A stretch of 64,000 nucleotides of DNA, from sequence record PZ179882.1, one strand, 5' to 3'. Numbering within the stretch: the stretch's first letter is position 1; each line of letters opens with the position of its first letter. The notes beneath the pieces were generated by a model. The model was not told the DNA's origin. It saw only the letters and a program-made list of their open reading frames with translations, and did not search any database. Positions 10,974-17,452 of this stretch are shown here, piece after piece. A program made the translations under genes and the position numbers. This stretch comes from a phage.

Positions 10974-11150
10974 TTAAGTATTGTAAAACATTCGATGCAA
11001 TCGTTTATACTGTCGAATCATCTTTTTAGTAGGACGAGAATAGGTTCCTACGCAAGTGGTCATATGAGGGTCCGTAGAATGTCCTTTAATAAAAAGTTTC
11101 CAAACCTTACCGCCATTTAACTTTTCAGTATAAACCAATTCGGTTTTCAT
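10974..11150 (-). CDS. Small protein (58 aa) sharing its C-terminal 14 residues with the downstream pin-like protein
   Basis: Found by eye (below 60-aa track cutoff): ATG at 11150, TAA at 10974; translation MKTELVYTEKLNGG...RQYKRLHRMFYNT. Confidence 0.4.
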   Translation of the reverse strand: MKTELVYTEKLNGGKVWKLFIKGHSTDPHMTTCVGTYSRPTKKMIRQYKRLHRMFYNT

Positions 11151-11233
11151 TAAAATGTCCTGTCAGAAAAAGAATTTTGAGTTTTTTTCAAGTATTATAA
11201 AACATTTGATGCAATCGCTTATATTGCCGAATC
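10976..11233. repeat. Diverged direct repeat (~44 bp) at the 3-prime ends of two adjacent genes
   Basis: 10976..11019 and 11190..11233 align with about 5 mismatches; both encode ...RQYKRLH(R/Q)MFYNT plus stop. Confidence 0.6.
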
Positions 11234-11673
11234 TTTTGGTCAGAAAAAGAAATTTGAGTTTCAAGCCATTCAATGTACTCTGCGGCAGCTTGCATCAGGT
11301 TACCTTCATAGCCATCGTTATTTTCTTGCGCAGCTAATTTAGCTAATGCGTATGAAATACGTTCACCTTGAAAAGAGGCTTCAGGCTTCTGAACATCTTG
11401 GCTAGTTCTCTCTACAACTTCTTCAATTTCGCCATTTTCGACTGATTCAGTATTCCACAAGCACCAATACGTAATTGGCTTATCGTAGATGTTAATAATC
11501 TTTCCGTCGGAAAGTTCAATTTCAATAATTCCAGTATCAGGTTCTATATCATCTTCACATTCTTTTGCAAGTTCACGAACTTTAAAGACAGTACCTGCAC
11601 TAAGTTCCGGCCAGTAATTACACAGCCCTATATCAACACGATTAATTCTAAACCACTTATCTACTGTAATCAT
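11188..11673 (-). CDS. pin: Probable protease inhibitor Pin
   Basis: ORF track 11188..11691 begins at TTG; ATG at 11673 gives 161 aa, the length of T4 Pin; position between 49 and nrdC; sequence itself not recalled. Confidence 0.5.
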   Translation of the reverse strand: MITVDKWFRINRVDIGLCNYWPELSAGTVFKVRELAKECEDDIEPDTGIIEIELSDGKIINIYDKPITYWCLWNTESVENGEIEEVVERTSQDVQKPEASFQGERISYALAKLAAQENNDGYEGNLMQAAAEYIEWLETQISFSDQKIRQYKRLHQMFYNT

Positions 11674-11795
11674 GTCCCATCTCCATATCAATTAAGTCAT
11701 TTATCGTTGGTTCATTATATACTGTTTCTTCATCAGTGTAAACCGGTTCTTCCGGCTCTGGCTCTACAGTTTCCCATCTAGCCGCCCACCAAGGT

Positions 11796-12690: not shown

Positions 12691-13080
12691 TTAATCCAAA
12701 ATATTATTAGGCATTGGTTGAACACTCACAAGTTCTTTAAAGAACTCAGTAGAGTCAGGCAATTTAACCATTTCCGGAGCATGCTTACTGAATTTATGTT
12801 TACATTGACGGCATTTATATTCAAGCTCTGGTTTACGCCAGTTAATCAATTGAACTTGTTCAGTACCGCATTCAGGGCAATTAGGAACGTTTTTAGAAGC
12901 TCTTTCACGTCGTTCAACCATAGCCATAATAGCATCCCATGCTGGAGGTTTAAAATCTAAATCGTCGCAGCCGTGAATCTTTCCACGCATTTCTAGATCG
13001 TCTTCTTCACCAGCCATAATAATTTTAATTAAACTGGAATTACTTGAAGCTGCAATGTCTTCTAATAAACGCTTTTTCAT
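12691..13080 (-). CDS. Zinc-ribbon protein
   Basis: 129 aa; CPECG...CRQCKH four-cysteine pattern. Confidence 0.5.
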
Positions 13081-14006
13081 TTCAATACCTCAATAGCATT
13101 ACGTAAACCATTTGCTTTGGCGGTTAAAGCCTTAAGAACTTTAGTATGATCTTCAATCTGTTTTTCAACTTCAATTAAGCGTGTATTAAGATATTCGCGT
13201 TCTTCGCTCAGATTATCAGCCTTTTCTGCTTTAGGTTCTTTTACAACTGGCTTATACGTATTAGGGTTCTTCAATTTAATTAGAATGCGTGAACTGTATA
13301 ACATTGAACCATTATCTTCGGTTTCATCATACATTTCCACTACGTCCATCATCTCCACCATCGTGCAGAGTTTATAAGACAACGAACGAATAGTTTTGTT
13401 GTGCTTATTAATTTCTCTAGCTGTCATGGTGCCGAGATTACGTGAGTAATAATAAGGAACCTGGATATTAATTAATACTGATGAACCACCTGGCTTGTGT
13501 GTTACTTCATCAGCAATAACCCAGTCCTTAACATGAACTGTATTTGTACGGTCATCGCCCGCGGTAAATAGTTTACGAGCATGCTTAAAAAGCATATTCA
13601 CTTGGTCATTGAATTGACAGGCGAATTTATCAGCAAATTTAGTTTCAGGAATGGTAGATAACCAATCAGCCAAATGGGTCTTTTTAACATCGTTAACAAT
13701 AGTAAATTCAACCAAATCGGTTATAGATGTCGCAGATTTAATGAAGCTCGGCTTCATAAAGTTTTTAATGTTATCACTAGCTACAGTAGAAGATAACAGA
13801 CGAGAACGTTTAAACCATTGAAGCAAATTGCCTAACGAATGAGAATAAGCGTTTTGAGTATCTTTACAGATATGATTTTCCTGGCCAACATATTGAAGGA
13901 AATCACGAAGAATATTATTGATTACTGCTCTGTGCCCGATCTGATAATTACGATGTTTAGTAATAAGACTGTCAAAATAATCAATATAATGTTTACGAGT
14001 TTTCAT
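13077..14006 (-). CDS. Paralog-array protein P1 (N-terminal globular region plus C-terminal coiled coil)
   Basis: 309 aa; shares motif FNDQVNMLFKHARKL and a C-terminal heptad-rich tail with the three upstream ORFs. Confidence 0.65.
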   Translation of the reverse strand: MKTRKHYIDYFDSLITKHRNYQIGHRAVINNILRDFLQYVGQENHICKDTQNAYSHSLGNLLQWFKRSRLLSSTVASDNIKNFMKPSFIKSATSITDLVEFTIVNDVKKTHLADWLSTIPETKFADKFACQFNDQVNMLFKHARKLFTAGDDRTNTVHVKDWVIADEVTHKPGGSSVLINIQVPYYYSRNLGTMTAREINKHNKTIRSLSYKLCTMVEMMDVVEMYDETEDNGSMLYSSRILIKLKNPNTYKPVVKEPKAEKADNLSEEREYLNTRLIEVEKQIEDHTKVLKALTAKANGLRNAIEVLK

Positions 14007-14058
14007 GTTCTTCTCACTTGGTTAATGATTTATACTCCGAGCCATCCTTGGCTTTAAA

Positions 14059-15060
14059 TTACTTAATTAACTGTAAAGCTTGTTCAAGACGATCCAGGCG
14101 ATTAACAGATTCTTCCCAAATCCTTTTAGCCTGCTCATATTCTTTCTGCGCTTTATTAGAAATTTCTAGAGCTTCTTTATAAGCTTTTTCTAGTGCAATA
14201 ACTTCTGGACGAATTTCTACCGGTTCAGGCGAATCATCAAGACATTCCATTAGTTCCTCAAGGGTAGTTTCTTCTTTAGGAGTATTCACAATTTCATCAC
14301 ATTTTTGTTGGTAAATTTCTTTATCAGTCGGTAAATAAGCACATTTCACTTCACGAAGACTAACTACAATTTTATATCCTTCCCAACCGCATATACTCTT
14401 AAAAGGATACGTATGAATATTTTCTACTGTTTCCATACAAAGTAATGCAGTCTCTAATTGACGAGTTATATCACTAGCAATTGAGAAAAATTTATTAATG
14501 TTCTTTTGATTAGCTTCTGGCGTAAAAAATCCATAATTCACAAAAATAGCTGCTTTATTTTTATCAAGTTCATATTCTTTTATGATAATCATATCAGAAG
14601 CCCAAGGATGAATTTGACGATAATCACCATAGCATAATTTAGAAGCTGATTTTAGAATTTGCTTTTTGAAAAGTCTGAAATTACTAATCCAACGACGAGT
14701 AAAAATATTCTCAGGGTCTTCTTTAATATTAAGATGATAAGAATTAACATCACCGAACCAATTATATCCTACTACATCTTTAGTTCGTTTAATTTCTTTC
14801 CCAAATTTACCAAGAATATCCTGATTAACTAAATATGAAAGAAGACGAGAACCTTTAAAGGTTTCCTTAATATCACTTTTATCTTCGCGACTAGAAATTT
14901 TATGAACTTCATGAATAAATTTGCTGGAAGAAACAATGCTTACATCAATATTATTGAGCCATTGATTGATAATGGAAATAACGTTATTCTGACTAGACAT
15001 AGGTTTAACTTTATCATCAATAACACTATTGAATGATTTGATATATTCGTTACGAGTCAT
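14059..15060 (-). CDS. Paralog-array protein P2
   Basis: ORF track 14059..15090; ATG at 15060 preceded by GAGGAG RBS and downstream of promoter 15089..15118; 333 aa; motif FRLFKKQILKSASKL. Confidence 0.65.
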   Translation of the reverse strand: MTRNEYIKSFNSVIDDKVKPMSSQNNVISIINQWLNNIDVSIVSSSKFIHEVHKISSREDKSDIKETFKGSRLLSYLVNQDILGKFGKEIKRTKDVVGYNWFGDVNSYHLNIKEDPENIFTRRWISNFRLFKKQILKSASKLCYGDYRQIHPWASDMIIIKEYELDKNKAAIFVNYGFFTPEANQKNINKFFSIASDITRQLETALLCMETVENIHTYPFKSICGWEGYKIVVSLREVKCAYLPTDKEIYQQKCDEIVNTPKEETTLEELMECLDDSPEPVEIRPEVIALEKAYKEALEISNKAQKEYEQAKRIWEESVNRLDRLEQALQLIK

Positions 15061-15088
15061 ATTAATCTCCTCAGTAGAAAGTAAGAAC

Positions 15089-15118
15089 ATTATACCACAT
15101 CCTTGTGGTAAAGTAAAC
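15089..15118 (-). promoter_or_regulatory. T4 early-type promoter (GTTTAC, 18 bp, TATAAT) between P3 and P2
   Basis: GTTTAC 15118..15113 and TATAAT 15094..15089 on minus strand. Confidence 0.6.
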
Positions 15119-16140
15119 TAGTTCAGTGCATTTAGTGCATTGTTCAGTTTAGAACGTTGCTTCGTGAGATTTTTGACTTTTTCTTGAGCTTTTTCTAGCG
15201 TCTTTTCAGCTTCTAGCACTTCATTAGTTGCTTTAACGAGTTCATCATCTACTGCCTTGATAGACTTCTCAATCGCATCTGCATGCCATTTTTCAACAGG
15301 TTTAAGACTCGGATTTTCAATAGGAAGAAAATTCACTTTATTGAATTTCCATGCATCTTTATTACCTGAACTATACATCCAAAATTTAGGATCGTTTGAT
15401 GAGTAATTGGATAAATTTAAGTTATCTTGCACTTCCTGCTTTTTCTCTTGTGTGACTTCGTCCTTTCTCAAAAAATCGTATTTAAATGAAACGATCATAT
15501 CAAGTTCATATGTTGTTGTATGTTCCCAATTTCGCTCAAAATGAGGTAAAATCTTAGACTGAACAGCGGCAACAACATCCATATACTTAAATGCTTCTGT
15601 CAACTGTGATTTAAGGCATTCACAAATTGAAAGAGAATTTTTTGTATTAGGTTTAAAGCTAATTCGTGCAGTTCTATTATTTTCTTTTAATGGTCTTACT
15701 TCCATCTGAAGAGTATAACCATCAAATTTCAGGTTCTTTAAGTTAATGTCAGAACCTTTTAATCGACTAGCCGTCGACAAAATTTGCTTTAATTGTCTAC
15801 GGAACAGAGCAATAAATCTCCATTCAATACGATAATGATTTGGATTGAAAAATCCAGATGATAAATCGACCTTACTTTGACCAACGCCTTGAACAAATAG
15901 AGGATTTTTATAATCAATAGTTTTACAGAAATCGGTGAGCAGCTCACGAGCCGTCATTTGTGTAATATACCCTGCTTTACTAAAATTACGCACCCATTCA
16001 CTGCTATTCGTATACTTAAAGTGATGAATAACACGATTAACTTTATCAGGGTCTAAATTATTTTCACACAAAAATGTCATAACATCACGAGTATAACTGG
16101 CATTACGAACTATATCTTCAATTTGAGAACGAGTTTTCAT
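15118..16140 (-). CDS. Paralog-array protein P3
   Basis: 340 aa; motif FRRQLKQILSTASRL; C-terminal coiled coil. Confidence 0.65.
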   Translation of the reverse strand: MKTRSQIEDIVRNASYTRDVMTFLCENNLDPDKVNRVIHHFKYTNSSEWVRNFSKAGYITQMTARELLTDFCKTIDYKNPLFVQGVGQSKVDLSSGFFNPNHYRIEWRFIALFRRQLKQILSTASRLKGSDINLKNLKFDGYTLQMEVRPLKENNRTARISFKPNTKNSLSICECLKSQLTEAFKYMDVVAAVQSKILPHFERNWEHTTTYELDMIVSFKYDFLRKDEVTQEKKQEVQDNLNLSNYSSNDPKFWMYSSGNKDAWKFNKVNFLPIENPSLKPVEKWHADAIEKSIKAVDDELVKATNEVLEAEKTLEKAQEKVKNLTKQRSKLNNALNALN

Positions 16141-16148
16141 GGTATTCC

Positions 16149-17051
16149 TTAAGATTTAAGTAAATCAACAATTTTAATTAACTTTTCACGCTCAGATTTA
16201 GCTTTACTACTCAATCCAGATAGTCTGAAAATTTCATCATCATATTGCTGAATAGAAATATTTAGCTCTTCAATCTGCTTATTAAAATAAGCAATTTGTT
16301 CAGAATGTTTTTCATTACTGCGAACTGGTACAGGTTTTGTAGGTAATTTAGTTGAACTGGATTCATCTGGGCGATAAATTAAAATGCAATTTGAACCAAT
16401 CGGACATTTAGCACCAGACACATATTCTAATGTTCCGGCTTCTTTTAAAACTTCAAAAGCTAAACAGAGATGATGCCCCATATTAACATAATCTGTAGAG
16501 CGAGCTCTGATGTAATAATCATCTCCACGAGTACTAAATTTAAAGCATTTAAGGTCTTCTGTATTATTGGTCTTAAAAATCATTTGTTTATCTAGACCTT
16601 TAGCTAATCGAGCGCCTAATGCTAATAATCGTCGTTGATTTTCCCACAAATCCGCAATCATTTGGTCAAATGATAATTTCGGCATTAGTCGACCATAAAG
16701 GTCATATCCTTTATTATAATTGCGAAGGATTTCACTCGCATTAATACGAGACAACGCTCCAATTTTATTAAGGGCTTTCATGATGCGATTAGATAAACCC
16801 ATTCCAGATCCGTTTGTTCGTTGCAAATGTTTATCTAATCCAAACCCAATATCAACTTTAAATTTATCTAAAATTTCAGCATGAACATCTCTGTCAATAA
16901 CATTCAAATCCAAAGTTGGGTTAAATCTATGAAAAAATTTATCTGGCTCTCCACGACGAAGTACAGTCCATTCATTTAATTTTTTATTAACTAAAGATTT
17001 AATTACTGCATTGACATTATTAATTACTACTGACATATTTTCCTCACTCAA
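16149..17051 (-). CDS. Paralog-array protein P4
   Basis: 300 aa; motif WENQRRLLALGARLAKG; C-terminal coiled coil. Confidence 0.6.
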   Translation of the reverse strand: MSEENMSVVINNVNAVIKSLVNKKLNEWTVLRRGEPDKFFHRFNPTLDLNVIDRDVHAEILDKFKVDIGFGLDKHLQRTNGSGMGLSNRIMKALNKIGALSRINASEILRNYNKGYDLYGRLMPKLSFDQMIADLWENQRRLLALGARLAKGLDKQMIFKTNNTEDLKCFKFSTRGDDYYIRARSTDYVNMGHHLCLAFEVLKEAGTLEYVSGAKCPIGSNCILIYRPDESSSTKLPTKPVPVRSNEKHSEQIAYFNKQIEELNISIQQYDDEIFRLSGLSSKAKSEREKLIKIVDLLKS

Positions 17052-17452
17052 TTTTCAATTTTACTAAATATACAGAATAAGATGGAACAGACTATATAAG
17101 CACCACACACAGATTGAACTAATACCATTCCAAAGAACCAAACAATATTATCAAACAATGTCTGTTTTACGTCGAAAGGACGTAAACTTACAGTAATATT
17201 ATCACCTTTTTCTATTGAAGAATACATCTCTGGGGAAATATATTCACTAAATCTATAACCGTCTTTGAGTTCATATACGGCAATAAACGATAAACTAGAC
17301 CCTTTTCCTTGTGTTCCTGTAATGGTATTAACTACAGTAACATCATAATCTTTATAATGCATATAATCATTAATTGCGTAATAACCATATGCAACTACTA
17401 TACATAAACAACATATCAATAAATTCAATCTTTTAATTATCAACCGTTTCAT
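17048..17452 (-). CDS. Membrane protein, two TM segments
   Basis: 134 aa; hydrophobic N- and C-terminal segments; ATGA overlap with P4. Confidence 0.55.
   Translation of the reverse strand: MKRLIIKRLNLLICCLCIVVAYGYYAINDYMHYKDYDVTVVNTITGTQGKGSSLSFIAVYELKDGYRFSEYISPEMYSSIEKGDNITVSLRPFDVKQTLFDNIVWFFGMVLVQSVCGAYIVCSILFCIFSKIEN

Follow-up and report, generated by a model that had tools for sequence, protein, structure and literature searches.

Evidence for tandem paralogy and a probable counter-defence role of the nrdC.3–nrdC.6 genes in a T4-like phage

Why does a T4-like phage carry four consecutive genes of similar length that sequence databases divide into three families? The question is raised by a 64,000-nucleotide stretch of phage DNA (sequence record PZ179882.1; hereafter the window), in which four genes lie side by side at positions 13077–17051 on the minus strand. 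A first reading of the letters alone (the original prediction) had described them as rapidly diverging tandem paralogs that share a recurring motif and a C-terminal coiled coil, and had proposed a role in host interaction or anti-defence. The analysis presented here supports paralogy of the four copies, identifies one of them as the orthologue of a known counter-defence gene of T4, and makes it probable that all four are ancient tandem duplicates of one scaffold, diversified as defence inhibitors with one target each.

The window is that of a Tequatrovirus, a T4-like phage. The 3,975-base array region is matched by 660 phage records, the top match at 97.6%, and comparison with T4 (NC_000866) and RB32 reveals the array, all of it on the minus strand, to consist of the orthologues of nrdC.3, nrdC.4, nrdC.5 and nrdC.6; the gene numbering of the original prediction has no straightforward mapping onto these T4 names. 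The four copies, with lengths in amino acids (aa), are as follows.

13077–14006, minus strand: copy A (309 aa), the T4 nrdC.3 orthologue; member of phrog_1435, with PF26897 as the label of close homologues
14059–15060, minus strand: copy B, orthologue of T4 nrdC.4, 333 aa; phrog_1435, as A
15118–16140, minus strand: copy C, orthologue of T4 nrdC.5, 340 aa; Pfam DUF7235, phrog_2351
16149–17036, minus strand: copy D, orthologue of T4 nrdC.6, 295 aa; phrog_2257, close homologues labelled PF26899

Four consecutive minus-strand open reading frames (ORFs) are thus found where they had been placed, and the lengths first given for A, B and C stand, while the 300 aa given for D are revised to 295. The D reading frame spans 16149–17051 if read from the TTG at 17051, but its most likely start, judged from the sequence, is the ATG at 17036, which is preceded by GAGG. 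The start of copy B is the ATG at 15060, preceded by the ribosome-binding site GAGGAG; a 343-aa reading from the ATG at 15090 was ruled out because that codon sits within the −10 box of a promoter (described below) and because GAGGAG precedes the ATG at 15060.

Relationship among the four copies

All-against-all alignment confirms the predicted similarity only in part. Copies A and B align significantly in BLASTP (24% identity over 226 aa, E-value (E) 1e-6), while pairs that involve C or D reach E 0.1 or worse. Comparison of profile hidden Markov models (HMMs) with HH-suite links all four copies, with unrelated neighbours at less than 1%. When first-round family profiles were built from Tequatrovirus, Dhakavirus, Gaprivervirus and Mosigvirus homologues, A and B matched at 98% (E 3e-13) and, with their tails removed, still at 98% (7e-14). 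B and C matched at 86% (5e-6), with the motif of the original prediction in register, and at 61% (8e-5) when globular regions alone were compared, and a merged A+B profile matched C at 93% (4e-7) over 251 columns. In the same profile comparison the controls nrdC.2, nrdC.7, nrdC.8 and nrdC.10 lay at E 0.04–0.9, and no sequence relationship of the array to nrdC.2, nrdC.8 or nrdC.10 was detected (HH-suite below 1.5%).

The narrow original D profile gave no significant match to A, B or C (E 0.003–0.3). An exhaustive D-family profile search of 1.84 billion representative proteins returned 15 matches, three of which (P0203, P0205 and P0206) are distant full-length relatives of D (E 3e-7 to 4e-5) that score 96–98% against the D profile and 77–90% against the C profile, P0206 over 249 columns. 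A rigorous D-side profile, from which the Tegunavirus gp94 and a Karamvirus 332-aa protein were left out to avoid circularity, matched A+B at 88% (2.9e-6) and C at 89% (2.5e-6), with controls below 1%; with tails removed it matched B at 77% (2e-5), with controls at 0.1–0.5%. Inclusion of two more relatives raised these values to 95% against A+B and 93% against C, and a globular-only comparison of the broadened D profile with AB gave 92% (6e-7). The link of D to A/B and C comes from intermediate relatives and a broadened profile that match both sides, and its significance arose only once the distant relatives from the exhaustive search were added. The profile links surpass the unrelated-neighbour controls by 4–6 orders of magnitude in E-value.

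Two pairwise bridges in the globular region join the D side to the A/B side. The Karamvirus 332-aa protein (D side, HH-suite 97%) and a Jiaodavirus 324-aa protein (A/B side, 89.5%) align in BLASTP at E 1.4e-7 with 25% identity over 157 aa, and their 37 bits compare with a shuffle maximum of 25 (500 shuffles were scored for the pairwise bridges). The Tegunavirus gp94 (D side, 93%) aligns with a Mosigvirus A-type protein at E 1.2e-6. Moreover, a jackhmmer search from tail-trimmed B joins all four copies and takes up 0 of 1128 shuffled or reversed decoys. Together with the order of secondary-structure elements predicted for C and D (see below), the profile links and the globular bridges support the paralogy of all four copies that had been proposed. 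As members of one superfamily defined by profile similarity outside the tail, C and D have moderate support, which is drawn from sequence comparison. A scan of viral contigs for related loci yielded close relatives only.

An apparent jackhmmer merger of A, B and C over the harvested proteins was rejected. It was an artefact of a single chimeric protein, P0033, without which the families stay apart; the A–C merger was discarded for this reason, and P0033 was left out of all subsequent profiles. The protein, encoded on a phage contig of ~167 kb, consists of C residues 146–272 fused to A residues 129–309, and represents a natural chimera that joins C to A and lacks B. Since the junction (...KFNKVN joined to MLFKHARKL) falls exactly at A's shared motif, recombination between paralogues at a short common stretch is suggested.

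Pfam and PHROGs split the array into three families, namely A (with B in PHROGs), C and D, and databases treat these as unrelated because the labels PF26897 (A), PF23882 (C) and PF26899 (D) differ. Copy C matches PF23882 (DUF7235, the NrdC.5 family) at 429.3 bits (E 1.2e-128) across model positions 1–307 of 307, against a gathering threshold of 30 bits. Copy A reaches 14.3 bits (E 0.028, model positions 139–307), which is under that threshold, and a DUF7235 match was absent for B and D in the Pfam search. Full-profile HMM matches to phrog_1435 are obtained for both A (E 3.5e-115) and B (E 5.7e-165), and the PF26897 and PF26899 labels are by proxy, precomputed on cluster representatives 96–99% identical to A and D. 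In many GenBank records the orthologues of nrdC.3–nrdC.6 and nrdC.10 carry the label ‘thioredoxin’. A thioredoxin identity for nrdC.3–nrdC.6 was rejected, as no thioredoxin or glutaredoxin family matched any copy at E ≤ 1 in Pfam or E ≤ 0.1 in NCBIfam, and for this reason the label looks like annotation that has spread from the locus name nrdC.x.

Shared architecture and the internal promoter

What do four proteins this divergent have in common? The recurring motif of the original prediction is present in every copy, beginning at A132, B128, C113 and D131, and is in register in the profile–profile alignments.

13569–13613, minus strand: motif helix of A, FNDQVNMLFKHARKL, residues 132–146, placed by profile alignment
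14635–14679, minus strand: motif helix of B, FRLFKKQILKSASKL, residues 128–142, in register with C and with D
15760–15804, minus strand: motif helix of C, FRRQLKQILSTASRL, residues 113–127, in predicted helix 100–126
16596–16646, minus strand: motif of D, WENQRRLLALGARLAKG, residues 131–147, aligned to the B motif

In D this motif is the most conserved stretch of the family, with invariant columns N133–G147. The profile alignments place a second common motif upstream of the first, which reads FKRSRLLSSTVASDNIKNF in A, FKGSRLLSYLVNQDILGKF in B, FSKAGYITQMTARELLTDF in C and LNKIGALSRINASEILRNY in D. Overlapping this second motif, A residues 30–86 (about 13749–13919, minus strand) weakly match the helical N-terminal domain of tyrosine recombinases of the XerD/XerC type; with E 0.0016 and 17.7 bits, where the cutoff is 279, the match is sub-threshold, was not accepted, and is probably due to chance.

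The heptad-rich C-terminal tail of ~40 aa that had been described is likewise found in all four copies, with predicted terminal helices in C and D.

13080–13205, minus strand: heptad tail of A, last 42 aa; shuffle p 0.0055
14062–14187, minus strand: heptad tail of B, last 42 aa; shuffle p 0.0025
15121–15291, minus strand: predicted long C-terminal helix of C, residues 284–339 (AlphaFold); shuffle p < 0.0005
16152–16313, minus strand: predicted C-terminal helical hairpin of D, residues 242–294 (AlphaFold), conserved in sequence across the D family; shuffle p 0.002

Each 42-aa tail exhibits significant a/d heptad hydrophobic periodicity (shuffle p 0.0000–0.0055), ranks in the top 0–1% of windows within its own protein, and contains 0–1 proline or glycine residues. 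The AlphaFold model of D has a predicted local distance difference test (pLDDT) score of 78 and terminal helices at 242–271 and 277–294, so that the tail of the monomer forms a helical hairpin, and the C and D models present their secondary-structure elements in identical order. When the D model was searched against BFVD with Foldseek, proteins of ~300–375 aa from eight other T4-like genera were retrieved at E 2e-7 to 3e-4. Sequence searches of NCBIfam and PDB stayed below threshold throughout, and no solved fold was matched.

An early promoter had also been placed between the second and third copies, and this holds as a conserved sequence feature.

15089–15118, minus strand: putative T4-early-type promoter GTTTACTTTACCACAAGGATGTGGTATAAT between C and B, recognised by sequence match and conservation

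Read from 15118 to 15089, the element has the layout GTTTAC-N17-(TG)GTATAAT, with TGGTATAAT after the N17 spacer. T4, RB32 and four IMG/VR relatives keep it in the identical position. In Dhakavirus and Gaprivervirus it also lies between the C-like and B-like genes, though the proteins encoded there have diverged to 20–50% identity.

Divergence and copy number

Rapid divergence had been predicted for the array as a whole and was found for A, B and C, while D is more constrained. Gene-wide pairwise ratios of non-synonymous to synonymous substitution rates (dN/dS) within Tequatrovirus are 0.13–0.38 for A, B and C, 0.00–0.15 for D, and 0.00–0.13 for nrdC, nrdC.8, nrdC.9 and nrdC.10. Selection on A, B and C, which lie above their neighbours, is relaxed or episodically diversifying, yet purifying overall. 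Across genera, identity falls to 20–28% for C and 44–51% for B, as against ~78% for NrdC.10. In D-family proteins, residues 1–80 form a hypervariable stretch (9–31% conserved), and conservation is 59–76% in the motif region and the tail. Copy A occurs in Tequatrovirus as two old allele classes, one at ~90–99% identity and the other at about 61–62%, the latter being the type of T4; between the window and T4, A shares about 62% identity with a synonymous divergence (dS) of about 0.8–0.9.

The number of copies also varies. A survey across T4-like genera resolved between one and four copies, with none found in Tulanevirus at this locus.

Tequatrovirus: 4 copies (D, C, B, A)
Dhakavirus and Gaprivervirus: 3 copies (D, C-like, B-like)
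Mosigvirus: 2 copies (D-like, A-like)
Tegunavirus: 2 non-adjacent copies (gp94, placed on the D side by its sequence; gp111, matched in structure alone)
Karamvirus, Jiaodavirus and Moonvirus: 1 copy each
Aeromonas Tulanevirus: 0 copies, none found at this locus

Family placement of an Acinetobacter 343-aa protein and of the Tegunavirus gp111 was not supported by sequence. The orthologue of B is split into two ORFs of 193 and 158 aa in a G8-like phage among the IMG/VR relatives (locus L004, 8054–9100) and lies in 2–3 pieces in G8 and T2 records (H110, H106), and on account of this splitting B is probably dispensable or pseudogenised in some phages. The D orthologue of Shigella phage Sf25 (P0091, 378 aa) contains an internal tandem duplication of residues 176–258, a beta-rich region and linker. 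Five Dhakavirus/Gaprivervirus loci (L008, L010, L011, L013 and L014) carry a conserved 71-aa ORF between the D and C-like genes that is absent in Tequatrovirus.

Counter-defence function and competing explanations

What might such an array do for the phage? The T4 orthologue of one copy supplies an answer. NrdC.5 of T4 is an anti-Dsr1 factor, Dsr1 being a SIR2 defence (Srikant et al. 2022, eLife, PMC9391042): plating on ECOR17, and on MG1655 with dsr1 from ECOR17, is lost in a deletion mutant of T4 and returns when T4 nrdC.5 is supplied in trans. The mechanism, the extent of the T4 deletion and whether paralogues remained in the mutant are not stated in that paper or its supplements. Copy C shares 94.7% amino acid identity with T4 NrdC.5 and occupies the same genomic position. 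Literature on nrdC.3, nrdC.4 or nrdC.6, or on kinship among the four, was not found. The neighbourhood bears on the same question, as the flanking gp49.2 is an anti-OLD gene (PMC13096335) and nrdC.1 an anti-Septu gene (bioRxiv 10.1101/2025.11.20.689424); since gp49.2, nrdC.1 and pin counter host systems, the pin–nrdC region is an anti-defence island. The anti-defence role first proposed for the array has experimental backing in the T4 orthologue of C and gains context from gp49.2 and nrdC.1 nearby, while for A, B and D we infer such roles. Because they are homologous to the copy known to disarm Dsr1, nrdC.3, nrdC.4 and nrdC.6 are counter-defence candidates.

We propose that an ancestral early gene of ~300 aa in the Tevenvirinae was duplicated in tandem to give up to four copies. 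Their common plan would comprise an N-terminal helical domain, a helical segment with the two motifs, a beta-hairpin/helix/beta-hairpin unit, a disordered linker and, at the C-terminus, a heptad helix through which the proteins probably oligomerise. The genes would be transcribed early within the pin–nrdC island, partly from the conserved internal promoter. NrdC.5, of which copy C is the orthologue, neutralises Dsr1, a SIR2 defence protein that depletes nicotinamide adenine dinucleotide (NAD), and each copy would be directed at its own immune protein, or protein variant, of the host, with inhibition probably by direct binding. In such a protein the variable regions may confer specificity and the conserved core and tail may confer scaffold and avidity. 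A further idea, which we regard as possible and hold tentatively, is that NrdC.3–6 form a modular oligomerising inhibitor scaffold that is retargeted by duplication and by replacement of variable regions, such as the hypervariable N-terminus of D.

Several results weigh against reading nrdC.3–nrdC.6 as duplicated and diversified defence inhibitors. Plain BLASTP and standard iterative HMMER fail to join C and D to A/B; the original D family profile alone finds no match in AB or C (E 0.02–0.24); and the tail-trimmed jackhmmer search takes up C (4.8e-4) and D (2.8e-4) by marginal steps, with its best decoy at 2e-3. The structure models cover C and D, so a superposition of all four is absent. The C model, built from an A+B+C alignment and ending in a 56-residue helix (284–339), is of too low quality for use (pLDDT 51), and in BFVD the D model has no direct significant match among the Tequatrovirus representatives of A, B or C. 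On the functional side, NrdC.5 is the only family member with functional evidence, from one complementation experiment; dN/dS is below 1 throughout and positive selection is not demonstrated; and D within Tequatrovirus is as conserved as ordinary neighbours.

Could C, D or both be unrelated to A/B, with low-complexity amphipathic helices and a coiled-coil tail having converged in phage ORFans of similar size? The weak pairwise scores, the three separate Pfam and PHROGs families and the chimera behind the jackhmmer A–C merger all point that way. However, the profile links survive tail removal and are in register at two separate motifs, their lead over unrelated neighbours is the one given above, the two independent globular bridges exceed their shuffle maxima, and C and D share a predicted secondary-structure order, all of which makes convergence very improbable. 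If the four are homologous, their ancestral role may still have been something other than counter-defence, such as take-over of the host early in infection, regulation or nucleic-acid binding, with the Dsr1 effect indirect or acquired as a one-off. The constraint on D within Tequatrovirus and a motif region that is near-invariant across genera would fit a conserved partner, single-copy relatives persist in many genera, and the sub-threshold XerD match to A could be taken as a hint of such a role. Against this, the genes are non-essential and accessory, three other genes of the region are anti-defence or anti-protease, A, B and C are fast-evolving and differ in which phages carry them, and the XerD match is far under its curated cutoff and has no counterpart in Pfam; we consider a non-defence origin unlikely.

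A different arrangement of the same homologues is that they act through their coiled-coil tails as one hetero-oligomeric complex and not as independent inhibitors. All four have heptad tails, the genes are adjacent and co-oriented, and the D tail is conserved in sequence beyond the heptad pattern, which suggests a specific partner. Such a complex is difficult to reconcile with copy numbers of one to four between genera, with the two-ORF form of B in a G8-like phage, or with an exchange of divergent A alleles in which B, C and D take no part. Moreover, nrdC.5 alone in trans restored plating on Dsr1 cells, with the paralogue content of the mutant unstated (PMC9391042). A single complex of this kind is decidedly unlikely, and independent inhibitors that arose by duplication of one scaffold remain the explanation that we judge probable.

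How does the array compare with systems already described? T4 NrdC.5 (DUF7235) is the orthologue of C, and A, B and D are its distant paralogues with the same architecture; they differ in falling below the DUF7235 threshold, and the anti-Dsr1 data come from the T4 allele and would extend to the C allele of the window by its identity. Gp49.2, NrdC.1 and the Lon protease inhibitor Pin belong to the same early, non-essential and variable island, lie on the same strand and are small proteins without known domains, but each is single-copy and much shorter (about 80–105 aa). The single-copy Tevenvirinae relatives (Karamvirus 332 aa, Jiaodavirus 324 aa, Tegunavirus gp94 and gp111, Moonvirus 354 aa) are ~290–355 aa in length, have a heptad tail, occupy the nrdC.10–nrdC locus, score 77–97% in HH-suite against D-side or AB profiles and match the D model in structure; they are present in one or two copies rather than four and are all uncharacterised. 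DSAD1, a protein of SPbeta-type phages, reportedly inhibits DSR2 by direct binding (Garb et al. 2022 and later structural work). The likeness is one of function only, that of a phage counter to a SIR2-domain NAD-depleting defence; DSAD1 comes from another phage group and its target is DSR2, not Dsr1, and binding of NrdC.5 to Dsr1 would be an analogy.

Beyond the array, the neighbouring genes of the window present features of their own.

17048–17452: nrdC.7, a membrane protein gene, the next upstream gene and outside the array
12691–13080, minus strand: nrdC.2, 129 aa, with a CxxC...CxxC zinc-ribbon-like segment
18481–19200, minus strand: gene for a 239-aa Seg-like GIY-YIG homing endonuclease between nrdC.9 and nrdC.10, alike in RB32 and absent there in T4
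11188–11691, minus strand: pin
10974–11150, minus strand: 58-aa ORF adjacent to pin

The nrdC.2 of the window aligns with the 104-aa nrdC.2 products of T4 and RB32 at ~81% identity over 75% of its length with dS ~0.9, and from this partial and divergent alignment nrdC.2 shares a divergent-allele block with copy A. The last ~14 residues of the 58-aa ORF, IRQYKRLHRMFYNT, are shared with the C-terminus of Pin, IRQYKRLHQMFYNT, and the ORF looks like a partial duplicate of pin, as the RB32 annotation likewise hints.

The T4 genes themselves and the counter-defence role of one of them were known already; what is new is that three database families would form one superfamily. Phage counter-defence genes are elusive because they lack recognisable domains, and the array yields a short candidate list in the best-studied phage. 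If the explanation proposed here is true, the three uncharacterised copies and the single copies of Karamvirus, Jiaodavirus, Moonvirus and Tegunavirus would be unrecognised inhibitors of distinct defence systems, and the same scaffold with variable regions, present in one to four copies, would offer a natural series for the re-targeting of specificity.

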